Shown: positions 43,389-59,978 of the stretch, piece by piece
How positions within the stretch are numbered: the stretch's first letter is position 1
How the letters are laid out: each line of letters opens with the position of its first letter
Source: an uncultured Bacteroidales bacterium
GTDB taxonomy: Bacteria; Bacteroidota; Bacteroidia; Bacteroidales; UBA4417
Length of the DNA stretch: 64,000 nt
Direction of reading: 5' to 3'
Assembly (NCBI GenBank): GCA_937889945.1
Contig: CALBZC010000010.1
Location: 129,666 to 193,665 of the forward strand
Translations under genes and position numbers: made by a program
The notes under the pieces: generated by a model
What the model was told of the DNA's origin: nothing
The model's database searches: none
Seen by the model: the letters and a program-made list of their open reading frames with translations, nothing else

Positions 43389-44456
43389 TCAAAAATTATT
43401 TAAAAAGTCAAGTGTATCAACTCCGTCTGCATAGTTTTGTAGCTGTGGGAATTGTGTTTCTCCCAGTTTTACTGTTTTTTTATCTGCATATATATTGGTT
43501 GCTACACATTGTATCTGTTCATCATTTTCTTCAATATATTTTTTTAATTCATTTAAATCGGCATACGTTTCATAAAATAAAACAGATATAGGAGAGGCTA
43601 TTTGCGAGGATTGTTGCATAAGTGCCACCGCATTTTCGTAATGAAAAGTTTGGTTTACCAGCATAATTGATTTGTTATAAATATAATTATTCATATACTT
43701 TGAATGGTTTACCAATTCTTGGGTGTATGGATCTATGCCTTTAAAAACATTGATTATATCATAGTTTTGCGGAACATATACTTTGGAAACGTTTCTACAC
43801 CCAAGCCCAAAGTAGGCACAAATATCTGTTCCCAACAATTTCAATTCCTCATCTGTTTCATTACCATCCAAAATGGCTATTCCATTACGATTTTTGCGGA
43901 TAATATGTGGATAGTCAGAAAAATATTGTTCAAAATAGCGAGCCGAATTATTACTACCCGTGGCGATAATAGCCTCAAAAGCAGGTAATTTTTCGGTTGT
44001 GAAAAGAATTTTGGTTTTTAGTTCAGGGTTCCATTTGCAGAGTTCTTCGGCAAAAGCGGGCAATAAATATTTGTCGTGCGAGGAGAGCTTGCCAATAAAA
44101 ACATGACCTGAAATCAGTACGCACAAAAAATCGTGAAACCCTACCAAAGGTATGTTTCCTGCCATAATTACGGCAACTTTTTTTTGCTTAGCCTCATTTT
44201 TATCGATATTGTAGTTCTCTATCCAATGTATGATGTTATCTTTTGTTAAAAGAGGTATCCATGCCTGTAAGGCAAAAGCTATGTTAGGCTTTGTAAACCA
44301 CAAATTTTCTATACATGTCTTCTCTATGGCATCAGATATATTTGCATAAGTATTCTCAAAAGTTGTATTTTTGTTATGCAGATACAAGGTAGTCTCTTTA
44401 AAAAGATTACCCAGCCGCACAAAGGCTTCTATTCGTTTTTCTAACGCAGTTGTCAT
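43389..44456 (-). CDS. acyl-CoA reductase (LuxC-like) family protein
   Basis: 355 aa. Its length and its placement next to serC-serA match what I recall for Bacteroidota proteins annotated this way. A minus-strand TATCTTTG promoter motif lies at about 44481-44492. Confidence 0.55.
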   Translation of the reverse strand: MTTALEKRIEAFVRLGNLFKETTLYLHNKNTTFENTYANISDAIEKTCIENLWFTKPNIAFALQAWIPLLTKDNIIHWIENYNIDKNEAKQKKVAVIMAGNIPLVGFHDFLCVLISGHVFIGKLSSHDKYLLPAFAEELCKWNPELKTKILFTTEKLPAFEAIIATGSNNSARYFEQYFSDYPHIIRKNRNGIAILDGNETDEELKLLGTDICAYFGLGCRNVSKVYVPQNYDIINVFKGIDPYTQELVNHSKYMNNYIYNKSIMLVNQTFHYENAVALMQQSSQIASPISVLFYETYADLNELKKYIEENDEQIQCVATNIYADKKTVKLGETQFPQLQNYADGVDTLDFLNNF

Positions 44457-44511
44457 AATAAATATATTGGCTATATTATTTGCAAAGATATTTTAATTTA
44501 AAAAGAGTTGT

Positions 44512-45381
44512 ATGCATACTATTTTAAAAATAAATTTTTATAAATTTTCCTTGCTTGTTTTTGCTTTTTTGTTTTTTCATATTGGGATTAAGGCACAGTC
44601 ATTTAAGGAAAAGGATTCACTTCAAAAGTTGTGCTTGGAAATATGGAACCAAGAAACTGATTCGGCAAAAGTGGAAGTAAGCAACCGCTTCTCATCCTAT
44701 TTTTATTCCTTTTTATCGGATAAAAATTTACCTGCAAATGCATTAGATTCCATAAAAGGCATTGTGCACGTGAAAAGTAGCGATGAACAACTGCAAATTT
44801 TTACATGGAACCTTCCTTTGCATGATGGCAGCTTTTTATATAAAGGATTTATTCGCGCCAATGGTAATATTTTTGCAATGGATTCAAAGGAAAGTTCAAA
44901 TAGAAATATAGCTGAAAATATTATAGATATCAGCAAATGGTATGGCGCATTATATTATAAGCTTATTGAGTCTGAACTCAGAGGCAAAAAGATTTATACT
45001 CTGCTGGGATGGGACGGTTATAATGCACGTCAGGACAGGAAAATAATAGACATTATTAATATACACGATAAAAAAATAACCTTCGGGGCTCCTTTGTTTA
45101 AAACAAAAGAAGGATTAAAAAACCGTGTAGTTATTGATTATGCCGATAGGGGAAATATGGTTATGCGTTACGACCGGCAATTTCTGAAAGTGGAAAAAGG
45201 AAAAAACATAAGCAAAGAAAAGCGCAACTTTATTGTAATGGACAGGTTGCACCCCATTATACCTGAGTATGAAAACAATAGAAGTTTTTACGTGCCCTCC
45301 GGCGATTTTTACGATGCTTTTATGATGCTTGACGGATATTGGGTTTTTGTAGAAGATATAGAAGTGGCAAATCCGAGATAA
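44512..45381 (+). CDS. secreted hypothetical protein
   Basis: 289 aa with a signal peptide (LLVFAFLFFHIGIKAQS). No motif was recognised. Confidence 0.6.
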   Translation: MHTILKINFYKFSLLVFAFLFFHIGIKAQSFKEKDSLQKLCLEIWNQETDSAKVEVSNRFSSYFYSFLSDKNLPANALDSIKGIVHVKSSDEQLQIFTWNLPLHDGSFLYKGFIRANGNIFAMDSKESSNRNIAENIIDISKWYGALYYKLIESELRGKKIYTLLGWDGYNARQDRKIIDIINIHDKKITFGAPLFKTKEGLKNRVVIDYADRGNMVMRYDRQFLKVEKGKNISKEKRNFIVMDRLHPIIPEYENNRSFYVPSGDFYDAFMMLDGYWVFVEDIEVANPR

Positions 45382-47696: not shown

Positions 47697-48068
47697 ATGG
47701 AGAATAAAAAATTACGATTTAATTTTGAAGATCTTTTACTCTATCAAAAATCTCTTGATTTTATTCAAATGGTTTATTCTCTATCATCCGAATTTCCTAA
47801 AACTGAAATCTATGCACTTACTAACCAGTTTAGAAGGGCTTCGAATTCCATAGCATTAAATATTGCTGAAGGTTCCGGCGCTTCTAAATTGCAATTTATA
47901 AGATATTTGAATATTGCAAAAGGTTCTATTCATGAATGTGTGGTTTGTGTGACGTTAGCAAGCAAATTAAAATATATAAATCAATCTCAGGACGAAGAGT
48001 TAAGAGTAAAATTAGTAGAGCTGTCTAAAATGTGCAGCGGACTAATATCTAAGCTAAAAGAGACTTAA
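47697..48068 (+). CDS. four-helix-bundle protein (23S rRNA intervening-sequence protein / Avd-like family)
   Basis: 123 aa. Family-typical blocks are present: FEDLLLYQKSLDF, LTNQFRRASNSIALNIAEGSG and YLNIAKGSIHECV. Confidence 0.85.
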   Translation: MENKKLRFNFEDLLLYQKSLDFIQMVYSLSSEFPKTEIYALTNQFRRASNSIALNIAEGSGASKLQFIRYLNIAKGSIHECVVCVTLASKLKYINQSQDEELRVKLVELSKMCSGLISKLKET

Positions 48069-49435: not shown

Positions 49436-50131
49436 TTATCCTTTTTGACTTATAAGCTCTAATTGCTTTTCCTCAAGAATTACAATATCTTTATCATGAA
49501 GCAAGATAATGTTTTCCTTTTCAAAAGATTTTAATATCTTAACAGCACTTTCTGTGGTTATTCCTGCAAATTCCGCAATATCTTTACGAGATAAAAGTTG
49601 AAATATTTCGGTATGCTCTTTTTTTAATTCATTCATATATAGCAATACTTCCGCTATTCTACCATTCATCTGTTTGTTTTGGAAAGTATGTAGTTTTTCA
49701 AACAAGGTAGTATTTTGTTCACAATATTTTTTAATAATATCTATACCAAAATTTCCATTATTCCTTATTACCTTTATTATTGCCTCCTTTTCTATTAAAA
49801 ATGCCGTGCATTCGCTAATAGCAATGGTGGAGTATTTAAAAACGTTATCTAAAAATATTGCTGATAATCCAACAAACTCGCCAGGGCGTGTAATTCTCAA
49901 ATTTAAATTCTTATATCCGTCTGATTCTAAATATTGCTTTGCTAAACCCTCCGTAACAAATAGCACATAAGAAGAAAATGCTCCTTGTTTGGTGAGATTG
50001 TCTCCTTTGCGGAAAAGTAACTGCGTACGGCTTGATTTTATTAACTCTAACTCTATAGGTTTAAGCTGCTGAAAGCACGGTGCCGGTATGTTGCATAAAA
50101 AATCAGCATTCGAATGGACAATAGTTTTCAT
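49436..50131 (-). CDS. Crp/Fnr family transcriptional regulator
   Basis: It has a cNMP-binding-like beta-roll and a C-terminal HTH (LSRKDIAEFAGITTESAVKILKSFEKENII). The ATG at 50131 is preferred over the TTG at 50134. Confidence 0.85.
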   Translation of the reverse strand: MKTIVHSNADFLCNIPAPCFQQLKPIELELIKSSRTQLLFRKGDNLTKQGAFSSYVLFVTEGLAKQYLESDGYKNLNLRITRPGEFVGLSAIFLDNVFKYSTIAISECTAFLIEKEAIIKVIRNNGNFGIDIIKKYCEQNTTLFEKLHTFQNKQMNGRIAEVLLYMNELKKEHTEIFQLLSRKDIAEFAGITTESAVKILKSFEKENIILLHDKDIVILEEKQLELISQKG

Positions 50132-50260
50132 CAAAAAAATAAAGGTAACAATTGGATATGCAAAAATAAATAATTTACATCAATAAAAATATTGTTCTAT
50201 TTCAATTAAAGCATTAACAATGTTCAACCCGTCTTTTTTCCTTATTTATTGGAGTGAATA

Positions 50261-50297: not shown

Positions 50298-50642
50298 ATG
50301 TTATTCACAAACTTAAAACACATTTTAACAGCGCAAGAACACGCTAATATACTAAATGAAAATGAAAACGTGATGGTGATATGCGGACGCATGGGACCCA
50401 TGTGTATTCCGGTATACGGGATAGCCGAAGAGCTTGAAAAACAATATCCTCATGTAAAATTTTACGATATGGAATTTGATAATCCTGAGTCGCATGTAAT
50501 ACGTAATTTGCCTGAAGTTCGCAGCTTTATGGGCATCCCATTTGTGATTTATTATAAAAACGGTAAGGTTGTGCATGCCACATCAAGCATACAAACAAAA
50601 GAACAAATTACGTCTATTTTAGACAATGTATTTGGAAAATAA
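50298..50642 (+). CDS. thioredoxin-fold protein with atypical active site (C-GRMGPM-C)
   Basis: 114 aa with thioredoxin-like topology. Where WCGPC is expected the sequence reads VICGRMGPMCIP. Confidence 0.65.
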   Translation: MLFTNLKHILTAQEHANILNENENVMVICGRMGPMCIPVYGIAEELEKQYPHVKFYDMEFDNPESHVIRNLPEVRSFMGIPFVIYYKNGKVVHATSSIQTKEQITSILDNVFGK

Positions 50643-50649
50643 GAATGCC

Positions 50650-51591
50650 ATGGATAAATCAACAGATTATGATGTAATTGTGGTGGGTGCCGGTCCTGCC
50701 GGTCTTACCGCTGCATTATATCTATCAAGAGCTAAAGTTAAAACGCTTGTTATTGATAGTGGTATAGCAGGCGGACAAACCATACTTACCCATGAAATAG
50801 CTAATTATCCCGGCATAGAGCGTATTTCCGGTTATCAATTGGCACATATCATGAAAAAACAAGCTGAAAGTTTTGGAACTGAAATTAAAATCAATGCTGA
50901 AATTGAACGGATAGTTTTAGATCGTCGCATAAAAGAAATAAAGCTTAAAAAGAACGAAAATATATATACCGCTAAAGCGGTAATTTTTTCTTTGGGAGGT
51001 AGGTCGCGTACAATAGGGGCTACAAAAGAGGAATATTTTAAGGGGAAAGGGATTTCGTACTGTGCTACATGTGATGGGGATTTTTTTACAGATAAGGAAA
51101 TTGTGGTAGTGGGTGGAGGAAATTCAGCTTTAGAAGAAGCTGTTTCCCTTACAAAATATGCTTCAAAAGTGACCATAGTACATCAGTTTGACTATTTTCA
51201 GGCTTTTCCTCATGCAATTGAAGAAGCTAAAAAAAATACGAAGATAAATTTTATGTTAAATTCACGTATAACGGCATTTAATGGCGATGAAAAAATTGAA
51301 AGTGTTGACATTGAGAATATTAAAACAAAAGAAATTACACCTTTTAAAACGGACGGTGTATTTATATTTATAGGTTATTTGCCTAATACGGAATTAGTTG
51401 AGCATGCTTTAATGTTAAACGAGTGGAAAGAGATAATCGTAAAGTCGGATATGTCAACCAATGTAGAGGGGGTGTATGCTGCGGGTGATTGTATTAATAA
51501 AAAAATCAGACAGGTAACCACCGCCGTAGCTGATGGAACTGTTGCGGCGTTATCAGCCATTGAATATGTTATGAATTTTAAAAGTAAGTAA
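50650..51591 (+). CDS. thioredoxin reductase-like flavoprotein lacking the NADPH-binding HRRxxxR motif
   Basis: It has the FAD motif VIVVGAGPAGLTAA, the redox-active CATCDG and a second Rossmann VVVGGGNSALEEA. The latter is followed by VHQFDYFQA where HRRDxxRA is expected. The ATG at 50650 (MDKSTDYD) is preferred over the overlapping start at 50626. Confidence 0.8.
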   Translation: MDKSTDYDVIVVGAGPAGLTAALYLSRAKVKTLVIDSGIAGGQTILTHEIANYPGIERISGYQLAHIMKKQAESFGTEIKINAEIERIVLDRRIKEIKLKKNENIYTAKAVIFSLGGRSRTIGATKEEYFKGKGISYCATCDGDFFTDKEIVVVGGGNSALEEAVSLTKYASKVTIVHQFDYFQAFPHAIEEAKKNTKINFMLNSRITAFNGDEKIESVDIENIKTKEITPFKTDGVFIFIGYLPNTELVEHALMLNEWKEIIVKSDMSTNVEGVYAAGDCINKKIRQVTTAVADGTVAALSAIEYVMNFKSK

Positions 51592-51593
51592 AA

Positions 51594-52013
51594 ATGAAAA
51601 TCACATTTATTATAATAGGGGTTATACTCCTTTCTTTTTTATTGCTAAGCTATATTGCCAAAGCACGTTTAAAAAAACTCCCATTGGTAGAGAATCATAA
51701 GAAAATAATTACTTTAACAGCCGCCAATTTTCAAAATCAAGTTAAAAATAAAGTTGTATTAGTAGATTTTTGGGCTAGCTGGTGTGCTCCATGCCGTATG
51801 ATTGCACCCATACTCAACGATTTAGCAGAAGAATCAAAAGGTGATTTTTATGTGGGAAAGGTAAATATTGAAGAGCATCAGGCATTGGCACAGAAGTATA
51901 AGGTAAGAAGTATTCCTACTCTTATTATTTTTAAAAATGGAAAAGAAGCTAAACGTCTAGTGGGAGTGAAGAATAAAGAAGCCTTGCTCAAAGAGTTGCA
52001 AAATATCAAGTAA
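51594..52013 (+). CDS. trxA: membrane-anchored thioredoxin
   Basis: 139 aa. An N-terminal TM helix (ITFIIIGVILLSFLLLSYI) is followed by a canonical Trx domain with WASWCAPCRMIAP. Confidence 0.85.
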   Translation: MKITFIIIGVILLSFLLLSYIAKARLKKLPLVENHKKIITLTAANFQNQVKNKVVLVDFWASWCAPCRMIAPILNDLAEESKGDFYVGKVNIEEHQALAQKYKVRSIPTLIIFKNGKEAKRLVGVKNKEALLKELQNIK

Positions 52014-52129
52014 TTTCCTATGAGCTTGTTTGTATCGTGTGTTTTTTTTAATAAGCTCTTTTAAATACAGTAAATACTTAAAATAGTTAATATAAATTTT
52101 TATAACCAATATTTTAAACCAACATATCT

Positions 52130-52318
52130 ATGAGTTATTCAATTAGTGCATTAGCTTGTCCTCAGGATCATTACTGTCCTTTAATTCGTGTATGTCCTGT
52201 AGATGCTATTTCGCAAAATCGTTCGGGATTGCCTGTTATAGATGATGAAAAATGTATATCCTGCGGTAAATGTCAAAAATATTGCCCGATGCAGGCTGTA
52301 GAAATTAAAAACTATTAA
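52130..52318 (+). CDS. small 4Fe-4S ferredoxin
   Basis: 62 aa. It has one canonical CISCGKCQKYCP motif plus an N-terminal Cys set, C-x6-C-x5-CP. Confidence 0.75.
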   Translation: MSYSISALACPQDHYCPLIRVCPVDAISQNRSGLPVIDDEKCISCGKCQKYCPMQAVEIKNY

Positions 52319-52352: not shown

Positions 52353-52392
52353 AAGAGGGCAAGTATTTTAAATACTTGCCCTCTTTGTTTTA
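52353..52392 (+). terminator. rho-independent terminator after ferredoxin gene
   Basis: 16-bp near-perfect palindrome aagagggcaagtattt / aaatacttgccctctt followed by tgttttattt. Confidence 0.7.
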
Positions 52393-52475: not shown

Positions 52476-53540
52476 TTATTTTATACTTTTTATTTCCGGT
52501 TCTCTTAACTTTATAAAATACATGGCAAACGAGCGGTATAGGAAATGTGTCCATTTACCGAAAGGAACAATAATTAATGCCCATTGAGCCAATACGGTTA
52601 AATGAAATATATACATCCATTTGTTGCTTTCTAAGATATTTAAATCTATGAAAAGTCGTACGCCCAAAGCTGTAAATCCCATTAACAGCAACCAAATTAC
52701 AAAAAACCAATCGGATGGTTTGGACTTCTTAGCTAAGGCTTTCTTTTTTTGCATGCGGTCTTTTACAAAGTCAACTGTAATAACAAATATAAAAGCGCTT
52801 TCAATGTATCCAAGTACGATAATAAATAAGTTTTGGGTATGAAACCAATTTAAAAATACCGTAGTAAAAAGCAATGAAAGGTATGCAATAACGAGGATAA
52901 AGTGTTCTAACCACCGAAAGTGGTTGTCTGTACAATCTTTAGCACGTTTTTGTGTAAACATGTGTATGAACAGTTCATTTAATGCTGTGAAGTAGTTTTT
53001 TAACGGTACGTTTGAGTGTGTTTTAACAACCATAAAATACCACATTCTCATGAGGTTTGGGATAAATATTATTACAAAAACAGCAGCAATAGCAATCATT
53101 TCAAAAAAGTGACCAAATTGCAGCATTTTTTCCACTTCCCACTTTACCGCATTAGCAAAAATTAGTACACCTGCTAATACCATCAACATTGCAGTCAAAA
53201 AAGCCGGTAAATATTTATAAAATAACCCCGAAAGTCCTGTCCAATCATATTGGGCAGTAAGCCACCGGCGTAAAGACATCATCATTTCACCCGGGTCGGC
53301 TTCTCGCGGACATTTTTCAGAGCAGTCGCCACAGTAATAACATTCCCATGGTTCTTTGCTTGTTAAAATTTCTTCTTTTAATCCCAGCATGGAATACCGA
53401 ACAAACATGCGCGGGAAATTAGAATTTTTATTGGTTAAATTGCATACTGCAGTACAGTTGCCACAATTATAGCATGCTTTAAAGTCAAAAGTGCCGTATT
53501 TTTCTATATCTTTCGTTAATTCAGGCTTTATAAGTGCCAT
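52476..53540 (-). CDS. QmoC-like fusion: HdrC-type 2x[4Fe-4S] domain + NarI/DsrM/HdrE-type membrane domain
   Basis: 354 aa. The N-terminal part carries CYNCGNCTAVC and CYYCGDCSEKCP. It is followed by about 6 hydrophobic helices with conserved His residues and ends with PFGKWTHFLYR, like the PF(S/T)K..H end of nitrate-reductase-gamma-like proteins. Confidence 0.7.
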   Translation of the reverse strand: MALIKPELTKDIEKYGTFDFKACYNCGNCTAVCNLTNKNSNFPRMFVRYSMLGLKEEILTSKEPWECYYCGDCSEKCPREADPGEMMMSLRRWLTAQYDWTGLSGLFYKYLPAFLTAMLMVLAGVLIFANAVKWEVEKMLQFGHFFEMIAIAAVFVIIFIPNLMRMWYFMVVKTHSNVPLKNYFTALNELFIHMFTQKRAKDCTDNHFRWLEHFILVIAYLSLLFTTVFLNWFHTQNLFIIVLGYIESAFIFVITVDFVKDRMQKKKALAKKSKPSDWFFVIWLLLMGFTALGVRLFIDLNILESNKWMYIFHLTVLAQWALIIVPFGKWTHFLYRSFAMYFIKLREPEIKSIK

Positions 53541-53546
53541 AACGCG

Positions 53547-53819
53547 TTATTTTTTTAGTTGGTAAATATAATATTCGTCCATATCGTCAATTCCTTCAAC
53601 GCTAACTTCGCCAAATTTTTGGAGCGCCATCAAGTAATAAGTAACTTGGTCAATAGGTAACTGTGTAGCTGCTGAAAGTTGAGGAATTGTTTTTCCTTCA
53701 TTTTTGAGCGCTTCCAGTAATGTTTTGCGCATTTGTACATATTTCTTGCGCTCTTCATTAACATGGGGTAATACAGTACGTTCCTGTTTTATTACATGTA
53801 TAGTCTTAATTTTTTCCAT
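53547..53819 (-). CDS. small winged-helix-like protein, no Cys (operon-internal)
   Basis: 90 aa. The segment RKTLLEALKNEGKTIPQLSAATQLPIDQVTYYLMALQKFGEVS resembles an ArsR/MarR-type wHTH. It lies 6 nt upstream of the QmoC-like gene. Confidence 0.55.
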   Translation of the reverse strand: MEKIKTIHVIKQERTVLPHVNEERKKYVQMRKTLLEALKNEGKTIPQLSAATQLPIDQVTYYLMALQKFGEVSVEGIDDMDEYYIYQLKK

Positions 53820-53915
53820 GAGTTTTTTAATGTGATAATTTAGCTTTGCAACTCTATTAAAAATTTAATTATCTTGTTATTTAATATATTATTTTTTTTA
53901 TTGCCAATCAAGAAA

Positions 53916-55622
53916 TTAGTTTACGAGCGCATCTATCATCCCTTCAATTTGCGGATTAGTAAAGCCGGCTAAATCTATTGCATCTGTAGGGCATACAGGA
54001 GTACACATTCCACATCCTTTACAATTCGAAACATTAACCTTTGCTACTTGCCTATCTTCGTAGTTTACTGTCATTATTGCATCAAACGGACAAGCATTTC
54101 GGCAATTTTCGCATAGTATGCAAGATGCTGGATTTATTTGTGCCAATGTAGGTTCAAGTGTCATTTCTCCTTTTGTTAAAACCGAGTTGGCTTTGGCTGC
54201 AGCCGCTTGCGATGAGTTAAGAGTTTCCAATATATTTTTAGGTGATTGACAAGTGCCGGCAATAAAAACTCCATCAATAACAGTTTCTACAGGACGGAGT
54301 TTCATGTGTATCTCGTTATAAAAATTGTCGCGCCCCACGGGAATTTTTAGCGTATTGATTAACGTGTCATCTTTACGCGAAATCATACCTGTTACAAGTA
54401 CTATTAAATCTACTTCTGCTGTTATTTCTTTTCCGGCAGTGAGTATATCTTTGACTTTTATTAAAGTTTTTCCCTTTACAACTTCTATCTGGGGTTTGTT
54501 TTCGAGGTTAAACTGTATATAGATATCTCCATTTTTACAAGACTCTTCGTATAACAACTCTTGTTTTCCATAGGTGCGAATGCCTCTATTGTAGTGGAAG
54601 TTTATGATATTTCTATATTTTTGTTTAGCTTCGATTGCAACATGTATAGCAGCGGTACAGCAATAGCGCGAGCAATATTTATTTTCTCCTTCATCATCTT
54701 GCCGACTTCCCACGCAATAGATATAAGCTACTTTTTTTATTATTTTCCCATTGTGAATTAGTTCTTTATCGGATTTTTCTATTAAGTTTTTGAAATCCGG
54801 TAAAGTAATTACATTTTCGAGCACATTATATCCATATTCGCTTTGCAGGGGTTGGTATGATTCAAAACCGGTGTTAACTATAACAGCTCCAACATGAAGC
54901 GGCAAAATTTCTTTATCTATCTTTACCTTAATATTAAAATTTCCGATGCTACCTGTTTTTTCTATAACTTCGGCATTTGTGAAAATTTTAATATTGGTGT
55001 GTTTTAATATTTGAGAGTATAAAGAGTTAATAATATCAGAGCCTTTATCGTTGCTGGTAAATAATTTATCCCATTGTGCAATATGACCTCCAATTTTAGA
55101 TTCTTTTTCAATTAAATATACTTCTGTTCCCATTTCAGCTAAAGATATAGCAGAACGTAAACCTCCGATTCCGCCCCCTATGACTGCAGCAACATTTACA
55201 GCAGGTATTTTAACAGGTGTCAAAGCTTCTGATTCTCGTGCTTTGGCAATAGCTGCTTTTACCAGTTGAATGGCTTTTTCTGTGGCTCCTACAGGATTAT
55301 CCGAATGAGCCCACGAGCTTTGTTCGCGAATGTTAGCTTGTACATAATTGTAAGGATTTAAACCGGCTCTTTGTGCAACACCTCTAAATGTAGGCACATG
55401 GAGCTTTGGAGAACAAGAGGCAACAACAATAGCGTCAAGTTCGCTTTCTTGTATATCATGTTCTATTTCTTTTTGAGATGAATCAGAGCATGCAAAAAGA
55501 GTATTTTTTACCAGATATACGTCGGCTTCTTCTTTTACGGCTTCTTTTACTTTCTCTATATCCACATAATCGGAAATATTGCCCCCACAATGGCAAACAT
55601 ATACGCCTATTTTTTTCTTCAT
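53916..55622 (-). CDS. HdrA/QmoB-like FAD and Fe-S oxidoreductase
   Basis: 568 aa. It has the N-terminal IGVYVCHCGGNISDYVD block, the FAD motif AAVIGGGIGGLRSA and the HdrA signature CVGSRQ...YCSRYCC. The C-terminal ferredoxin motifs are CILCENCRNACP and CKGCGMCTPVCP. Confidence 0.8.
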   Translation of the reverse strand: MKKKIGVYVCHCGGNISDYVDIEKVKEAVKEEADVYLVKNTLFACSDSSQKEIEHDIQESELDAIVVASCSPKLHVPTFRGVAQRAGLNPYNYVQANIREQSSWAHSDNPVGATEKAIQLVKAAIAKARESEALTPVKIPAVNVAAVIGGGIGGLRSAISLAEMGTEVYLIEKESKIGGHIAQWDKLFTSNDKGSDIINSLYSQILKHTNIKIFTNAEVIEKTGSIGNFNIKVKIDKEILPLHVGAVIVNTGFESYQPLQSEYGYNVLENVITLPDFKNLIEKSDKELIHNGKIIKKVAYIYCVGSRQDDEGENKYCSRYCCTAAIHVAIEAKQKYRNIINFHYNRGIRTYGKQELLYEESCKNGDIYIQFNLENKPQIEVVKGKTLIKVKDILTAGKEITAEVDLIVLVTGMISRKDDTLINTLKIPVGRDNFYNEIHMKLRPVETVIDGVFIAGTCQSPKNILETLNSSQAAAAKANSVLTKGEMTLEPTLAQINPASCILCENCRNACPFDAIMTVNYEDRQVAKVNVSNCKGCGMCTPVCPTDAIDLAGFTNPQIEGMIDALVN

Positions 55623-56935
55623 GATAATTGATTTAAATAACCTGAAACTTCAGCAGCAGCAGCGCCTGCCGACATAATGGTATCTGGTATATCCATAGGA
55701 GCGGTGGCGGTTCCGGCAGCAAAAACACCTTCAATAGATGTTATAGCCGGACTTTGTAGCAAGTTTGTTTGTTTTACGTAGTTAATTTCGTCTGTTTTCA
55801 GGATCTTGTTTTTGAAAGCCTTTGTAACGGAAGAGTTAGCTAATAAACCTACGGATAAGACAACTAAGTCGTGCTCGCTTTCTGAAACTTCTCCTGTTTC
55901 AATATTTTCATAGCGTAATATAAGGTTTCCATTTTCCTTTTCGGAAATAGAAGCTATTTTACCTTTTACGAAGTTGGCGCCCATATCCTTTGCTTGCATA
56001 TAAAATTCATTAAACCCTTTTCCAAAAGCCCTGATATTGATATAGTACATGCTTATGTCTGCCATAGGTAAAGCCCCCATCAGCAATTGCGATTGTTTTA
56101 TGGAGTACATACAACAAACTTGCGAACAAATAGGGTTTCCGATGGTATGATCACGGGAACCCGTACAAAATACATACGCTATTTTATCTGGAACTTTTCC
56201 GTCCGATGGGCGCAATATATTGTTAAACGGGCGCGTTGGGGCTAACTGGCGTTCCATTTGCATGGAGGTAATTACATTTTTGTATTTTCCATAACCATAG
56301 CGCTCAATATGAATAGGATCAAATAATTTAAATCCTGTAGCCACTATAACTGATTTTACCTTTACACTAATGATTTGTTCTTTTTGGGTAAAATCAATAG
56401 CATTGGATGGACACTTTTGTTCGCAGGCGCCACATAACATGCAGTTATCAATATCAATAAGCGCAATGCGTGGATTGGCTATATTAAAAGGGATATAAAC
56501 TGCTTTTCGGGCTACCAAATTCATTTGAAATTGGTCGTGAACTACTGACGGACACACGGTTTCGCATTCCTGACAGCCGGTGCAATCTTGTTCTACTACG
56601 TATCTGGGGCGTTTTTTTAGGGTAATGGAAAAAGTATTATCAACTTCTTTGATAATGCTTTCGGGTTCTGTAAGTGTAAATAGAGTGATATTAGGGTGCC
56701 TTGCCGTTTCGGATACTTTGGGTGTTGTTATACAGGCAGCGCAATCCAATGTAGGGAAAACCTTACTTAAAAGTATCATTTTTCCTCCTATAGAAGGCTC
56801 TTTTTCCACCAACAGAACCTTAAAGCCCATGTCGGCAAGCTTCAATGCAGATTCTTCTCCGGCAATGCCGGCGCCTATTATCAAAACATCGTAATCGGCA
56901 CTCATGGAGTTTAGGTTTTTACTAACTGTTTGCAT
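55619..56935 (-). CDS. HdrA/QmoA-like FAD and Fe-S oxidoreductase
   Basis: 438 aa. It has the FAD motif VLIIGAGIAGEESA, CAACITTPK, inserted ferredoxin motifs CTGCQECETVCP and CMLCGACEQKCP, and the HdrA signature CTGSRD...ICSQVCC. It overlaps the next gene by 4 nt. An alternative start is at 56905. Confidence 0.8.
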   Translation of the reverse strand: MQTVSKNLNSMSADYDVLIIGAGIAGEESALKLADMGFKVLLVEKEPSIGGKMILLSKVFPTLDCAACITTPKVSETARHPNITLFTLTEPESIIKEVDNTFSITLKKRPRYVVEQDCTGCQECETVCPSVVHDQFQMNLVARKAVYIPFNIANPRIALIDIDNCMLCGACEQKCPSNAIDFTQKEQIISVKVKSVIVATGFKLFDPIHIERYGYGKYKNVITSMQMERQLAPTRPFNNILRPSDGKVPDKIAYVFCTGSRDHTIGNPICSQVCCMYSIKQSQLLMGALPMADISMYYINIRAFGKGFNEFYMQAKDMGANFVKGKIASISEKENGNLILRYENIETGEVSESEHDLVVLSVGLLANSSVTKAFKNKILKTDEINYVKQTNLLQSPAITSIEGVFAAGTATAPMDIPDTIMSAGAAAAEVSGYLNQLS

Positions 56936-57329
56936 GCGTTTCTATAATCTTTTCTAAATCTTTAACAAAGCTTTGCATATGTTTTACAAAAGGCTCGGCA
57001 CAAACAGAGCAAATGGCAGCCATTTTCAATTGTGAAGGCTGTAAACCTTTTTCACGCATAAGCTTTTGTGTGTTCATCACTATTTGCGAGGTTTTTTCTC
57101 CGCAGGATTCTCCGTATGAGCAATCTGTACCATCAGCAGCTATAAATACTCCATCAAATCCTTTTTCATAAGCCCGCATAATCCAACGGGGCTTGATGCA
57201 ACTTGAGCAAGGCACACTAATGGTATATACGCTTGCAGGATAATGCTTTTTTAGCAATCCTGCAAGGTCAATGGCGGGGTCTGATATTTTTTCGGTCGAA
57301 AAAACCAGTATTTTAGGCTGTGTAGCCAT
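56922..57329 (-). CDS. MvhD/FlpD-like hydrogenase iron-sulfur (delta) subunit family protein
   Basis: 135 aa. The Cys pattern VPCSSC...GFDGVFIAADGTDCSYGESC...ICSVC is as in methyl-viologen-reducing hydrogenase delta subunit-like proteins. Confidence 0.7.
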   Translation of the reverse strand: MATQPKILVFSTEKISDPAIDLAGLLKKHYPASVYTISVPCSSCIKPRWIMRAYEKGFDGVFIAADGTDCSYGESCGEKTSQIVMNTQKLMREKGLQPSQLKMAAICSVCAEPFVKHMQSFVKDLEKIIETHANS

Positions 57330-57333
57330 ATCT

Positions 57334-57585
57334 TTATTGTTTTTTTAGGAATAGTCTATAAATGCCGTCTTCGTCTATAGAACCAAAATATTCATAGTTC
57401 ATTTTATTGCACCATTTTGGAATATCACTTTTTGTTCCTTCGTCAGAAGAAAGTATTTCCATAATTTGTCCTGCTTGGATATCAGCAACACCTTTTTTTG
57501 CAGCCAAAAGTGGTCCCGGACATGCTGTTCCACGTGCGTCAATAGTTTTGTCAACTTTTAAAGCTTTTAATTCTTCTGTTGTCAT
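57334..57585 (-). CDS. tusA: TusA-like sulfurtransferase (sulfur carrier)
   Basis: 83 aa. It has the hallmark DARGTACPGPLL motif (CPxP). Confidence 0.85.
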   Translation of the reverse strand: MTTEELKALKVDKTIDARGTACPGPLLAAKKGVADIQAGQIMEILSSDEGTKSDIPKWCNKMNYEYFGSIDEDGIYRLFLKKQ

Positions 57586-57714
57586 ACGTTTATTCTCCTA
57601 TTTTTAGTTATTAAATTAATTTTTAGTCGTAGTTGGGAATGATAGGGGGCAGGAGCAAAATTGTAAAATAGAATTTTTAATTTCGGACTCAAGACTCCTT
57701 TCTCCCTGTTTTTT

Positions 57715-58263
57715 TTAAATAAATAATTGGATTCGGCTTTCGCTCGCATCTGAAAGATAAGTGCCTACACCTACATAACTTAGATGGGAGTAGTTAATCA
57801 TTTCTTCTTTTTTGAAACCCATTAAATCCATTGACATTTGGCAAATATTAATTTCAACACCCAGTTCGTCTGCTGTTTTAATAAGTTCTTCGAGCGAAGC
57901 TACATTTTTCTTTTTCATCAAACCTTTCATCATAGATGTTCCCATTCCAGCCATATTCATTTTGGAAAGTTTTAGTTTGGTACTCCCTTTGGGGAGCATA
58001 ACACCAAACATTTTGGACATGAAATCTTTTCCAGAAACGTTTTTCTTTTTGTCGCGTAACATGGCTGTACCCCAAAAGGTGAAAAACATTCTCACTTCCA
58101 TATCCATTGCCCTAGCTCCGGTGGCTATTATCATGGATGCCAATACTTTATCCAAATCGCCCGAAAAAACGATAATGGAAAGTTGGTCTTTTTGTTGATT
58201 CCCTTGCAGCGCTTTTATCTGTTGCTCCAGTATTTTTACTTGATTTTCTAACTCTGTTGACAT
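57715..58263 (-). CDS. DsrE/DsrF/DrsH-like family protein (DsrE2-type, soluble)
   Basis: 182 aa. It has the blocks LSIIVFSGDLDKVLASMIIATGA, MFFTFWG and ICQMSMDLMG, the last with a conserved Cys, as recalled for this family. Confidence 0.7.
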   Translation of the reverse strand: MSTELENQVKILEQQIKALQGNQQKDQLSIIVFSGDLDKVLASMIIATGARAMDMEVRMFFTFWGTAMLRDKKKNVSGKDFMSKMFGVMLPKGSTKLKLSKMNMAGMGTSMMKGLMKKKNVASLEELIKTADELGVEINICQMSMDLMGFKKEEMINYSHLSYVGVGTYLSDASESRIQLFI

Positions 58264-58275
58264 GATATTTTTTTA

Positions 58276-58647
58276 TTAGTAGGTTATAACCGATTTTGCC
58301 GATAAAGATTCTGTTACAATAGTTCCGGCAGCAATAATTTCACAACCTTCAATAAGATCTTCTTTAGCAATGCTACGTTCTTTTAAGCAAGGCGAACAAA
58401 GTTTTAATGTTCCCCCCATTTCTATATAGCTATTAATTAACTCATGTAAAGGCAAGAATCCGGGAGCTTGTATTTTTTCCGCTTCTCCTTTTTTTGCCAA
58501 TACAACTGCCGAGGATTGCAAGAAAATAACTACTTCAACATCACTTGCTTGTGCTGCTGTTGCTAAGACAAAAGGCAAGGTGGCTTTTTCGGGATTTTCT
58601 TGACCAATAGTATCAATAATTACGATTTTTTCTTTTTGAGTTTCCAT
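58276..58647 (-). CDS. DsrE family sulfur-relay protein
   Basis: 123 aa with a YchN/DsrE-like fold pattern (IVIIDT..., VVIFLQSSAV) and the Cys pair LKLCSPC. Confidence 0.7.
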   Translation of the reverse strand: METQKEKIVIIDTIGQENPEKATLPFVLATAAQASDVEVVIFLQSSAVVLAKKGEAEKIQAPGFLPLHELINSYIEMGGTLKLCSPCLKERSIAKEDLIEGCEIIAAGTIVTESLSAKSVITY

Positions 58648-58723
58648 GGCTTATTTTTTCAGCAAAATTATATTTCAATTAAAAGGAAAATTCTTTTTTG
58701 ATGTGTTTAATAATAAAAGATTT

Positions 58724-58739
58724 TGTGATATTAATCACA
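58724..58739. promoter_or_regulatory. perfect CRP-type palindrome TGTGA-N6-TCACA
   Basis: The sequence TGTGATATTAATCACA lies in the 126-bp divergent region between the dsrE-tusA-hdrA operon and the Crp/Fnr gene at 58774. Confidence 0.65.
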
Positions 58740-58773: not shown

Positions 58774-59451
58774 ATGGAACATGCTTGTATTATGTGCAGC
58801 ATTAAGTCTAATGCTATCGAAAAATTAAATGAAGATGAATTAAAGATGTTGGCTCATAATTGTGCTTCGTTACAATTTAAAGCGGGAGATCTTATTATCA
58901 AACAAGATTCATTTTCTACCAATGTGGCTTTTATAAAAAAAGGATTGGTGAAAATACATACCCGTGGACCAGCTAAAGAAAAAATTTTAAATATTAAAAA
59001 ATCTCCGGCTTATATATGCTTGCCCAGTTCGCTAGGAGATAAGGTTAATCATTTTTCCGTGACAGCTTTAGAAGATACGGAAATATGTTTTATAGATTTA
59101 TTGACGTTTAAAAAATTTATTTATGAGAATGGCGATTTTGCCTATCAAATTATTATGGATTTAAGTAAGGCTAATCTTTCTAATTCGCATAATTGTTTAA
59201 ATAATGCGCAGAAACAAAACGTAGGAAGGGTGGCTGATGCTATTTTATTTTTTGCAAAAGAAATATATAATTCAGATAATTTTATTTTGCCGCTATCTCG
59301 TCAAGATTTGGCTGATTTAACTGGAATTACAAGAGAGAGTGTAAGTCGCATTTTGTCGGATTTTCACGATAACAGAATTATAAATATTAATATGCGTAAT
59401 ATTACAATTCTTAATGAAGCCTTACTTTATCAAATTAGTGAAAAAGGTTAG
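58774..59451 (+). CDS. Crp/Fnr family transcriptional regulator with N-terminal Cys pair
   Basis: 225 aa. It has a cNMP-binding-like domain, a C-terminal HTH (LSRQDLADLTGITRESVSRILSDFHDNRII) and an N-terminal MEHACIMC. Confidence 0.85.
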   Translation: MEHACIMCSIKSNAIEKLNEDELKMLAHNCASLQFKAGDLIIKQDSFSTNVAFIKKGLVKIHTRGPAKEKILNIKKSPAYICLPSSLGDKVNHFSVTALEDTEICFIDLLTFKKFIYENGDFAYQIIMDLSKANLSNSHNCLNNAQKQNVGRVADAILFFAKEIYNSDNFILPLSRQDLADLTGITRESVSRILSDFHDNRIININMRNITILNEALLYQISEKG

Positions 59452-59978
59452 AGATAAAGCAGTAAAAAGGTGGCTGCCACTCCAATAGCTGTGATAATTA
59501 TACCTCTTTTAAAATTTCTGTTCTTGGGTTTATACATCCAAAATGAAGAAATGGCAAGAAATGAAAGAGATATAGCATAGATTATCACAAACGTATATTT
59601 TTTACTTCCTTCTCTTGTAAAATGGAGGTTTATCATTTTTCTGGCAAATGCATAATTTGTAAGTTTTTTATACGTTGCATCACCCGTTTTTTCGTTGTAG
59701 GTTCCCTTTTTAAAATACAAAATATTATTTTCCGTTTTATAGGGGATGGTGTCAGTAAATTCGTAGTAATCGGCAATTTGTGCTGCTGTTAGTCCCGGCT
59801 CAAACTTATCGTTATATTCTTTTTCATAGCTCCATAAGGGTGATTTTCCTTCAATCAGCATAATTCCGCTCAACGCATAAACTAAAGTGAGTCCTATTGC
59901 CAGGAAACCAATATCGCGGTGTAGCACGCGCATCCAGTATTGAATGGATTTTTTCGAGGGTTTGCAGTTGTCTTCCAT
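59448..59978 (-). CDS. hypothetical membrane protein (PepSY-associated TM-like N-terminus)
   Basis: 176 aa. It has three predicted TM helices and WMRVLHRDIGFLAIG near the N-terminus. The function call is weak. Confidence 0.45.
   Translation of the reverse strand: MEDNCKPSKKSIQYWMRVLHRDIGFLAIGLTLVYALSGIMLIEGKSPLWSYEKEYNDKFEPGLTAAQIADYYEFTDTIPYKTENNILYFKKGTYNEKTGDATYKKLTNYAFARKMINLHFTREGSKKYTFVIIYAISLSFLAISSFWMYKPKNRNFKRGIIITAIGVAATFLLLYL

Follow-up and report, generated by a model that had tools for sequence, protein, structure and literature searches.

What does a Qmo-like electron-transfer complex act on when the only genes kept beside it encode small sulfur carriers? The question is posed by a gene cluster at positions 52476-58647 of the window, the 64,000-nucleotide stretch of contig CALBZC010000010.1 from an uncultured Bacteroidales bacterium that was analysed here. 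An open reading frame (ORF) check of the window recovered all eight co-directional, minus-strand genes that a preliminary description of this DNA had listed, and the family assignments made there held in profile searches against Pfam and NCBIfam (Table 1). The encoded proteins are a DsrE, a DsrE2-type protein, a TusA, an MvhD/FlpD adaptor, two HdrA paralogs (HdrA1 and HdrA2), a Cys-free winged-helix protein of 90 amino acids and a QmoC-like membrane protein. Sulfate respiration depends on Qmo, and complexes built on HdrA are the paradigm of flavin-based bifurcation; which electron partners Qmo-type complexes use, and how they couple energy, is still to be settled. The cluster described here is real, conserved, widespread and apparently uncharacterised, and appears to work most like QmoABC while being built from methanogen-type HdrA parts. 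It suggests a hitherto undescribed connection of protein-bound sulfur with the quinone pool and with electron carriers of the cytoplasm. It represents a Qmo-like complex whose sole conserved partners are small sulfur carriers and whose hosts, among them one cultured strain, belong to hundreds of species in at least two phyla and are not known as sulfate reducers.

Organization of the cluster and its conservation in Bacteroidota

The eight genes form three tight blocks, rather than the two first described, divided by gaps of 129 nucleotides (nt) between the DsrE2 and TusA genes and 96 nt between the HdrA2 gene and the gene for the 90-amino-acid protein. Within the blocks, the 4-nt overlap and the 4-12 nt gaps reported earlier were recovered (gaps of 12, 4 and 6 nt, with mvhD starting 4 nt past the tusA stop codon), and the 14-nt overlap reported between the MvhD and HdrA1 genes was found to hold only for the longest ORF. 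Gene callers place the HdrA1 start ten codons later, at position 56905, which results in a protein of 428 amino acids and a 16-nt gap to mvhD, and this is the probable true start. No terminator or riboswitch-like fold was detected in the 129-nt gap (z = 0.0) or in the 96-nt gap (z = +0.9). A terminator scan combined with folding identified a hairpin past the last gene with a folding energy of -33.4 kcal/mol (z = -6.6). Because both internal gaps lack a terminator and a strong hairpin follows the last gene, the layout is consistent with the eight genes forming one transcription unit.

Relatives of the cluster were collected by searching species-representative genomes with a profile of the QmoC-like protein. 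This search matched at least 569 genomes, and the synteny counts given below refer to the best 80 loci of those matches, all of which are from Bacteroidota metagenome-assembled genomes. The taxa represented include Paludibacter, Proteiniphilum, Dysgonomonadaceae, Microbacter, Lentimicrobiaceae and Rikenellaceae, and the earlier placing of the host among the anaerobic Bacteroidota was supported. When the window proteins were compared with these loci by tblastn, the QmoC-like protein was found in all 80, the 90-amino-acid protein in 76, HdrA2 in 73, HdrA1 in 72, MvhD in 60, TusA in 56, DsrE2 in 51 and a divergently encoded Crp/Fnr regulator in 46, with contig ends accounting for most of the absences. 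The core order DsrE2-TusA-MvhD-HdrA-HdrA-winged helix-QmoC is kept wherever the flanking sequence suffices, in keeping with the synteny that the preliminary description presupposed. The gene arrangement is far beyond chance, because the same order recurs in nearly all related loci with enough flank and also in other phyla. Among 48-80 orthologs per core gene, conservation of the residues predicted to bind cofactors or to form active sites is 95-100%, and for most of these residues it is 100%. The identical eight-gene arrangement, together with the divergent Crp gene, is present in the cultured type strain of Williamwhitmania taraxaci, which makes the functional proposal given below directly testable. 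In W. taraxaci the QmoC-like gene is followed after 4 nt by a gene for a metallo-beta-lactamase-fold protein of 267 amino acids (locus L090), which has weak, generic matches to metallo-beta-lactamase models in NCBIfam; persulfide dioxygenases of this fold exist.

In a neighbour census, all ORFs within approximately 10 kilobases (kb) of the QmoC-like anchor were clustered without their content being presupposed. Only the genes of the cluster and the Crp gene were found to recur, and no further catalytic partner was recovered. The census of the 80 loci contained no Apr, Dsr, Psr, Asr, rhodanese, YeeE, HdrB or LbpA. Minor recurring neighbours were ThiF-family proteins and thioredoxin reductases (eight loci each), thioredoxin-like proteins and peroxiredoxins (six each), and an extra DsrE-like gene (four). 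The absence of Apr, Dsr, HdrB and LbpA partners noted earlier was borne out, with no apr, sat, dsr, hdrB (CCG) or lipoate-binding gene in the 64-kb window or in the 80 Bacteroidota loci.

Two architectures of the cluster were distinguished. The short form is the one present in the window. At least 22 loci have the long form, in which the place of HdrA1 is taken by an HdrL-type protein of 916-972 amino acids that carries an NADPH-glutamate-synthase-small-subunit/NfnB-like module within its ferredoxin insert (Fer4_20 and Pyr_redox_2; NCBIfam matches of 403-494 bits), and HdrA2 is approximately 733 amino acids long with the winged-helix protein fused to its C-terminus. Because HdrA1 carries this NADPH-GltD/NfnB-like module in these relatives, NAD(P)H is likely to be a redox partner in the long-form members, judging from their sequences. 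The natural occurrence of forms with and without an NAD(P)H module provides a built-in comparison.

The sulfur carriers

The conserved carriers of the cluster are DsrE2 and TusA, and the 123-amino-acid DsrE is accessory. The DsrE2-type protein matches PF13686 over its full length and falls below the cutoff of the equivalog model for DsrE2 of sulfur oxidisers (NF047629; 83 bits against a cutoff of 210). Similarly, TusA scores well above the PF01206 cutoff of 28.6 bits and falls below that of the E. coli-type TusA equivalog (NF001423; 56 bits against a cutoff of 78). The active-site Cys141 of DsrE2, within the ICQMS sequence, is 100% conserved among 48 orthologs, as is Cys22 in the CPGP motif of TusA among 56 orthologs, and the TusA gene is always located directly upstream of mvhD. 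Orthologs of the leading, 123-amino-acid DsrE were found at only about 4-6 of the 80 loci and in W. taraxaci, and its C84 and C87 (LCSPC) are invariant among these few sequences. The relay with two DsrE proteins that had been proposed is consequently not a core feature of the family, the conserved carriers being DsrE2 and TusA, and the Cys residues of TusA and of the DsrE proteins proved to be conserved, as had been anticipated. The possibility that DsrE2 is a membrane protein was rejected, as a hydropathy scan returned one weak segment (residues 28-46) that is part of the DsrE fold. The extra DsrE-like gene seen in four relatives (L013, L035, L037 and L066) is located between hdrA1 and hdrA2 and encodes a protein of approximately 165 amino acids (PF02635, 28 bits) with a hydrophobic, lipoprotein-like N-terminal leader.

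MvhD and the two HdrA paralogs

In MvhD, the residues C41, C70, C76, C107, C110 and H29 are 100% conserved among 59 orthologs. The two HdrA paralogs were compared with solved structures, and both were found to be closest to methanogen HdrA. HdrA1 aligns without a break to methanogen HdrA residues 141-562 (E = 8e-116) and consists of a flavin adenine dinucleotide (FAD)/thioredoxin-reductase-like core with an inserted 2x[4Fe-4S] ferredoxin domain. HdrA1 has retained the CxGSRD...CSxxCC cluster motif and a flavin-proximal D-C65-A-A-C68 sequence, which aligns with the Cys/Sec-containing motif beside the FAD of methanogen HdrA. HdrA2 aligns to methanogen HdrA in two pieces (residues 3-234 to 12-243 and residues 239-568 to 316-651; E = 3e-114) and is composed of an N-terminal Cys-rich domain (C10, C12, C45 and C70), an FAD domain with the CSxxCC motif and a C-terminal 2x[4Fe-4S] domain. 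The ferredoxin insert that had been ascribed to both paralogs is therefore present in HdrA1 and not in HdrA2, whose 2x[4Fe-4S] domain is at the C-terminus. The flavin-proximal CxxC was not found in HdrA2 of the window or of the clusters from other phyla described below, and the D-C-x-x-C motif is retained by HdrA1 of all of the latter. The cluster-ligating Cys residues of the HdrAs are essentially invariant among orthologs. Taken together, the alignments indicate that HdrA1 and HdrA2 are complementary pieces of methanogen HdrA. Both are far from sHdrA (6tjr_A), with E values of 5e-28 and 7e-33, compared with 1e-114 to 1e-116 for methanogen HdrA.

The winged-helix and membrane subunits

The preliminary description of the Cys-free, 90-amino-acid protein as a winged helix agrees with an AlphaFold2 model (mean predicted local distance difference test score 85.5), which shows an H-H-H-wing topology. 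The top Foldseek matches of the model were SmtB, NolR and MarR (E = 5e-4, TM-score about 0.6). Because at least 22 relatives have the protein as a C-terminal fusion to HdrA2, it probably acts within the complex, as a structural or adaptor subunit, rather than as a free regulator, which goes beyond the earlier assignment; the modelled ArsR-like fold may nevertheless bind DNA. A role as the transcription factor of the operon was considered and judged unlikely given the HdrA2 fusions, the fixed position between hdrA2 and qmoC, and the presence of a separate Crp/Fnr regulator (or, in clusters from other phyla, an ArsR regulator).

The HdrC-type 2x[4Fe-4S] domain of the QmoC-like protein comprises residues 1-110 (best matched in the Protein Data Bank by HdrC 7bkb_C, E = 7e-15) and is followed by a region in which the full-length protein has six predicted transmembrane helices. 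Eight Cys residues are 99-100% conserved, and H144, H213, H313 and H332 are 95-100% conserved. The His residues form two pairs, H144/H313 near the outer face of the membrane and H213/H332 near the inner face, a pattern consistent with a NarI/HdrE-type di-haem b arrangement in which these residues would bind the haems. The match to the NF038018 qmoC model spans the full model (positions 5-360) and reaches 145.1 bits, with a curated cutoff of 300.

Related clusters in other phyla

An exhaustive search of 1.84 billion cluster representatives with the QmoC-like protein placed the whole Bacteroidota family in one 50%-identity cluster (469 bits). Other full-length QmoC-like relatives, among them named matches from Desulfofundulus and Desulfoplanes, reached at most 40% identity and 278 bits. 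A Desulfoplanes sp. protein (P0125/P0271) is 764 amino acids long and has a QmoC-like N-terminal region followed by a region annotated as a heterodisulfide reductase-related iron-sulfur binding cluster; this protein may be a QmoC-HdrD-type fusion. A profile made for the outgroup retrieved proteins from Anaerolineales, Aminicenantes and Zixibacteria, and six outgroup neighbourhoods were inspected.

Four of the six, from Anaerolineae and unbinned contigs, hold sulfur-linked clusters that are orthologous to that of the window and are arranged as [DsrE]-TusA-MvhD-HdrA(~440)-HdrA(~680)-small ORF(90-104 amino acids)-QmoC-[DsrE-like]. Identities to the window proteins in these four are 45-51% for TusA, 50-53% for HdrA1, 38-46% for HdrA2, 35-37% for QmoC and 31-35% for MvhD. 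The winged-helix protein is 36-38% identical and in the same position in three of them; in the fourth (L088), tblastn gave no match of the 90-amino-acid protein to the equivalent small ORF. A DsrE-family gene is present in all four, as is TusA in the equivalent position, and no apr, sat, HdrB or LbpA gene was found in any of these four loci. In the Anaerolineales locus (L085), genes directly behind the cluster encode a DsrE-like protein, a TusA of the YeeD/YedF-like kind and a thiosulfate transporter of the TsuA/YeeE family (314 bits). In two others (L087 and L088), ArsR/SmtB regulators are encoded directly upstream of tusA, with BigR as their second-best family match. These regulators contain two Cys residues approximately 70 residues apart, where the corresponding spacing in SqrR/BigR is 66 residues, and thus resemble persulfide-sensing SqrR/BigR repressors in sequence. 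The YedF/YedE-like matches at L085 may hint at selenium handling; no selD or YedE gene was found in the Bacteroidota loci.

The remaining two neighbourhoods encode a QmoC-like protein and MvhD with other partners and contain neither TusA nor DsrE. In the Aminicenantes locus (L084) the partner is a NiFe hydrogenase, and in L086 the neighbours are HdrB (CCG), FrhB/FdhB and formate dehydrogenase. In both, HdrA1 and HdrA2 are fused into a protein of about 1050-1090 amino acids. These loci encode putative H2- and formate-linked quinone/HdrA complexes that also seem to be undescribed. Because the sister clusters carry a NiFe hydrogenase or HdrB with formate dehydrogenase in place of TusA and DsrE, the QmoC-like/HdrA/MvhD set can be read as a modular chassis, for which the sequences suggest TusA/DsrE to be one alternative substrate module.

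Proposed function and alternative readings

We propose, with about even confidence, that the cluster encodes a membrane-anchored Qmo-type complex that interconverts TusA/DsrE-bound sulfane sulfur and sulfide and is linked to menaquinone and to ferredoxin and/or NAD(P)H. The complex would consist of HdrA1, HdrA2, MvhD, the winged-helix subunit and the QmoC-like di-haem/iron-sulfur anchor, with TusA and DsrE2 (and, in this genome, DsrE) as its partners. The HdrC-like branch most plausibly communicates with the menaquinone pool, because this branch, which feeds the disulfide-reducing HdrB in methanogens, is fused here to a NarI/HdrE-type membrane domain. TusA and DsrE2 would present or receive sulfane sulfur, as a Cys persulfide or possibly a thiosulfonate, at the soluble module; this placement is suggested because tusA always directly precedes mvhD, which encodes the adaptor that, in other HdrA complexes, adjoins the substrate module (hydrogenase or formate dehydrogenase). 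A two-electron step between carrier-bound S(0) and sulfide would then be coupled to menaquinone/menaquinol and to a low-potential carrier, either ferredoxin, through the ferredoxin domains of the HdrAs, or NAD(P)H in the long form. The coupling site would probably be the flavin of HdrA1, possibly by bifurcation or confurcation, because HdrA1 alone keeps the CxxC that is found beside the bifurcating FAD of methanogen HdrA. In the reductive direction, sulfane sulfur, polysulfide or thiosulfate-derived sulfur would be converted to H2S, serving as an electron sink or for detoxification in a fermentative anaerobe. We lean modestly towards this direction over the oxidative one because the hosts are fermenters, because the outgroup clusters include a TsuA importer and BigR-like repressors, and because thioredoxin reductase, thioredoxin and peroxiredoxin genes are found in a minority of loci.

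Several points weigh against this proposal. No catalytic site for the reduction of S-S bonds or persulfides is encoded (no CCG/HdrB, rhodanese or molybdopterin subunit), and because no catalytic domain was recognised, assigning the sulfur chemistry to MvhD, the HdrA1 CxxC or an iron-sulfur cluster is a guess. The CxxC of HdrA1 is ancestral, being present in methanogen HdrA, and is therefore no specific adaptation. Analogy and thermodynamic reasoning are the basis for the proposed direction of electron flow, stoichiometry and bifurcation. TusA and DsrE could instead serve cofactor biosynthesis or regulate an NAD(P)H/ferredoxin:menaquinone enzyme. A distant Apr, Asr, Psr or Dsr partner may exist, the gene searches having covered the window and the related loci. 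The YeeE/TsuA and ArsR/BigR-like genes of the outgroup are absent from the 80 Bacteroidota loci, and no transcript, proteome or phenotype data were found for the cluster.

If the complex does turn over carrier-bound sulfane sulfur, abundant fermentative Bacteroidota and Anaerolineae contribute to a cryptic sulfur cycle that standard marker genes do not reveal. The cluster would also be a minimal system for the coupling of quinone, pyridine-nucleotide/ferredoxin and sulfur redox chemistry by HdrA/Qmo modules. More tentatively, it might be the founding example of an undescribed class of HdrA complexes with protein-bound sulfur as substrate. Such an enzyme would use flavin-based bifurcation or confurcation to link a carrier persulfide (or thiosulfonate) with menaquinone, ferredoxin and NAD(P)H, and TusA/DsrE2 would replace the AprAB, HdrB or hydrogenase of known HdrA/Qmo systems. 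On that reading, fermentative Bacteroidota and Anaerolineae, which abound in digesters, sediments and wetlands, would have a cryptic, energy-coupled metabolism of zero-valent sulfur or thiosulfate that escapes surveys based on the marker genes dsr, apr, psr, sqr and sox.

The same parts could run in the opposite direction, which we consider unlikely. The complex would then be a cytoplasmic sulfide:menaquinone (and NAD(P)+/ferredoxin) oxidoreductase that converts sulfide to TusA/DsrE2 persulfide, either to feed thio-cofactor synthesis and tRNA thiolation in sulfide-rich, cysteine-poor habitats or to use sulfide as a donor for fumarate respiration. In related clusters the module beside MvhD is an electron donor (NiFe hydrogenase or formate dehydrogenase), and TusA occupies that place here; ThiF-family genes are nearby in 8 of the 80 loci. 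With sulfide/S0 at about -270 mV and menaquinone at about -75 mV, electron transfer from the former to the latter is exergonic, and TusA is the entry point of biosynthetic sulfur relays in E. coli. Nevertheless, a complex with about ten cofactors would be costly for a small biosynthetic flux, and no bulk acceptor of sulfane sulfur is encoded (no export, globule proteins, Dsr or sHdr). The TsuA/YeeE importer and BigR-like repressors of the outgroup clusters are a better fit to imported oxidised or zero-valent sulfur.

A reading in which the carriers take no part in catalysis is, in our estimate, quite unlikely. Here the complex would be a bifurcating or confurcating HdrA-based NAD(P)H/ferredoxin:menaquinone oxidoreductase, analogous to FixABCX/EtfABCX, with the carriers serving maturation, repair or redox regulation. 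The long form does have all of the ports that such an enzyme would need (the GltD-like module for NAD(P)H, an HdrA flavin of the bifurcation type, ferredoxin domains and a QmoC linked to quinone), no catalytic domain for sulfur chemistry is present, and electron transfer from NADH to menaquinone and ferredoxin is thermodynamically feasible. However, TusA and a DsrE-family gene are kept across phyla while the H2- and formate-linked sister clusters lack both, the carrier Cys residues are invariant, and the short form present in the window is without any NAD(P)H module.

Relation to known HdrA-based systems

Full-text literature searches found no description of the cluster, although Appel et al. 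(2021, BBA 1862:148379), who reviewed HdrA modules, may mention it; the earlier remark that no characterised system of such composition was known agrees with this result. The closest functional likeness is to QmoABC. As the preliminary description had recognised, the composition is Qmo-like, with two HdrA-related flavo-iron-sulfur proteins, an MvhD module, no HdrB and an HdrC-type domain fused to a six-helix di-haem b membrane domain, for which QmoC is the best NCBIfam match over the full length. By analogy, both would be quinone-linked electron modules serving sulfur chemistry, and confurcation has been proposed for Qmo (PMC3333476). In QmoABC, the MvhD domain is located at the C-terminus of QmoB (PMC3333476), whereas in the window MvhD is the product of a separate gene ahead of both HdrAs. 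The present cluster further differs in its extra winged-helix subunit, in having TusA/DsrE2 rather than AprAB/Sat as the genetic partner, and in its hosts, which are fermentative Bacteroidota and Anaerolineae.

It was also considered whether the cluster is simply canonical QmoABC that feeds an APS (adenosine 5'-phosphosulfate) reductase or another sulfur oxidoreductase encoded elsewhere, the host being a cryptic respirer of sulfate, sulfite or thiosulfate. Besides the overall composition, some database pipelines name homologs of the membrane subunit 'QmoC', and sulfate reducers do not always have qmo next to apr (PMC3333476). This reading was rejected as highly improbable: the QmoC-like protein falls below the curated model cutoff and is at most 40% identical to QmoC-like proteins from outside its single Bacteroidota cluster, MvhD is not fused to QmoB, and neither the window nor the 84 related loci yielded an apr, sat or dsr gene (80 Bacteroidota and four outgroup). 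The earlier view that this is not a canonical Qmo thus stands. In addition, Paludibacter, Petrimonas, Proteiniphilum and Williamwhitmania have been described as fermenters and not as sulfate reducers.

With respect to the protein parts, the methanogen HdrABC-MvhAGD complex provides the closest solved structures to HdrA1 and HdrA2, with approximately 50% core identity. The FAD, the CxGSRD...CSxxCC cluster, the ferredoxin domains and the MvhD adaptor are shared, with the HdrA domains split here over two paralogs. In contrast to the methanogen HdrA homodimer, the window encodes two complementary HdrA paralogs, there is no HdrB (and hence no CCG disulfide-reducing site) and no MvhAG hydrogenase, and a single protein combines the HdrC domain with a membrane di-haem domain. 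HdrB and the hydrogenase are also missing from the related Bacteroidota loci, and L084, a QmoC-like cluster of another type, is the one place with a hydrogenase.

Genes for TusA and DsrE2 are typical companions of shdr clusters (PMC11094781), and the sHdr-LbpA systems share with the present cluster a tight linkage of an Hdr-type complex to carriers of these families with conserved Cys residues. The window cluster lacks HdrB1/B2, HdrC1/C2 and LbpA, and its DsrE2 fails the sulfur-oxidiser model. Whereas sHdrA is a protein of approximately 350 amino acids with one FAD and one [4Fe-4S] cluster, both HdrAs here have extra iron-sulfur domains. No PF02754 CCG protein was found in the operon or among its recurring neighbours, and no LbpA or maturation genes were found in the window region or related loci. 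To our knowledge, neither a QmoC-type membrane anchor nor MvhD is a component of sHdr, and both are present here. An sHdr variant that has lost some subunits, which the TusA/DsrE2 linkage might bring to mind, has next to no probability given that HdrB (CCG) and LbpA are missing from all 80 Bacteroidota and four outgroup loci and that both HdrAs are distant from sHdrA and near methanogen HdrA, and it was rejected, in line with the preliminary description.

Two further systems share individual features. HdrL was described in Desulfobacterium autotrophicum as an HdrA into which a GltD-like module that binds NAD(P)H is built (PMC2702500), and the long form of the present cluster, with its adjoining mvhD, fits this definition. 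HdrA1 of the window differs in having no GltD-like insert, and HdrL loci are, by description, unlinked to QmoC-like anchors, TusA and DsrE2. In the yedE-tusA-dsrE (YTD) clusters of sulfur disproportionators and in TsuA/YeeE-YeeD systems, TusA and DsrE-family carriers likewise are encoded together, and L085 alone among the loci studied here has the transporter. No YedE/YeeE (PF04143) gene was found in the window or in the 80 Bacteroidota loci, and YTD clusters as described contain no HdrA, MvhD or QmoC genes (PMC12998232).

Regulation and flanking genes

Table 1. Coordinates of the cluster genes, flanking features and selected features of related loci. Positions refer to the window unless a locus is named.
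Feature	Position	Strand	Description
DsrE	58276-58647	-	123 amino acids; LKLCSPC; PF02635, 60 bits; accessory, not core
DsrE2-type protein	57715-58263	-	182 amino acids; ICQMS; PF13686, 188 bits
TusA	57334-57585	-	83 amino acids; CPGP; PF01206, 78 bits
MvhD/FlpD	56922-57329	-	135 amino acids; [2Fe-2S] adaptor; PF02662, 92 bits
HdrA1	55619-56935	-	438 amino acids; HdrA2 model NF040770, 478 bits
HdrA2	53916-55622	-	568 amino acids; HdrA2 model NF040770, 497 bits
Winged-helix protein, Cys-free	53547-53819	-	90 amino acids; without Pfam or NCBIfam family
QmoC-like protein	52476-53540	-	354 amino acids; NF038018 qmoC, 145 bits; HdrC TIGR03290, 60 bits
Hairpin, GC-rich	52353-52385		15 base pairs; separates the convergent QmoC-like and ferredoxin genes; probably ends the operon as a bidirectional terminator
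TAATTTTG	58663-58670	-	matches the -7 consensus TAnnTTTG; 16 nt before the ATG of dsrE; putative promoter element
Palindrome TGTGA-N6-TCACA	58724-58739		perfect, CRP-type; in the 126-base-pair divergent intergenic region
Crp/Fnr-family regulator	58774-59451	+	225 amino acids; divergent; Pfam cNMP_binding, HTH_Crp_2 and Crp
Thiol-redox operon	50298-52318	+	Pfam assignments; convergent with the cluster; possibly associated, not core
Second Crp/Fnr gene	49436-50134	-	divergent from the thiol-redox operon
PepSY_TM-like membrane protein	59448-59978		176 amino acids
bAvd-like protein	47697-48068		123 amino acids
LuxC-like homolog and divergent ORF	43389-45381		355 and 289 amino acids
Long-form example	L018 4898-9886		HdrA1 about 940 amino acids, HdrA2 about 733 amino acids
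Other long-form loci			L002, L007, L009-L011, L022-L025, L027, L030, L032, L036, L038, L050, L067, L078-L080
ArsR/SmtB regulators	L087 4227-4511; L088 4199-4540		directly upstream of tusA
Metallo-beta-lactamase-fold protein	L090 10329-11132		W. taraxaci; 267 amino acids

The Crp/Fnr-family regulator encoded divergently from dsrE adjoins the cluster in 46-47 of the 80 loci. It has weak NCBIfam matches to FtrB, FnrL and Fnr. Conservation reaches 98-100% for Cys5-x2-Cys8 and Cys105 and 85% for Cys141, a pattern that resembles an FNR-type cluster or a thiol sensor. The TGTGA-N6-TCACA palindrome is the sole match, allowing at most one mismatch, in the 64-kb window, one match alone being within chance expectation. 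At approximately 100 base pairs upstream of the first gene, the palindrome is exact in 27 of 43 relatives and present with at most one mismatch in 31 of 43, and it is probably the operator of the adjacent regulator. Expression of the proposed complex would be controlled by a Crp/Fnr protein with conserved Cys residues acting through this site. The element preceding dsrE matches TAnnTTTG, which we take to be the -7 promoter consensus of Bacteroidota, as in Bacteroides promoters.

The thiol-redox operon that converges on the cluster encodes a thioredoxin-like protein (114 amino acids), a thioredoxin reductase (321 amino acids), a membrane-anchored thioredoxin (139 amino acids) and a 2x[4Fe-4S] ferredoxin (62 amino acids). 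ATAATTTTGC, the same element as that of dsrE, also precedes this operon; upstream of the operon, no second copy of the palindrome and no operator shared with the cluster was found. The 114-amino-acid protein has no Pfam family and a weak thioredoxin match, with CGRMGPMC where WCGPC is expected, and the transmembrane anchor of the 139-amino-acid thioredoxin is N-terminal. A pair of thioredoxin-like and thioredoxin reductase genes adjoins the cluster in 6-8 of the 80 relatives, but on the other side or at varying positions, which suggests a loose functional link between the thiol-redox operon and the cluster.

Three further features of the window were recorded. The PepSY_TM-like gene is convergent with the Crp/Fnr gene, their 3' ends overlapping by 4 nt, and is not kept beside the cluster in relatives. 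Between serA and a DUF1015 gene lies a gene for a '23S rRNA intervening sequence protein'/bAvd-like four-helix bundle (PF05635, 106 bits; PF22296), and no reverse transcriptase or other part of a diversity-generating retroelement was seen nearby. Finally, a LuxC-like acyl-CoA reductase homolog of 355 amino acids, with a weak match to PF05893, is encoded divergently from an ORF of 289 amino acids without a Pfam match.

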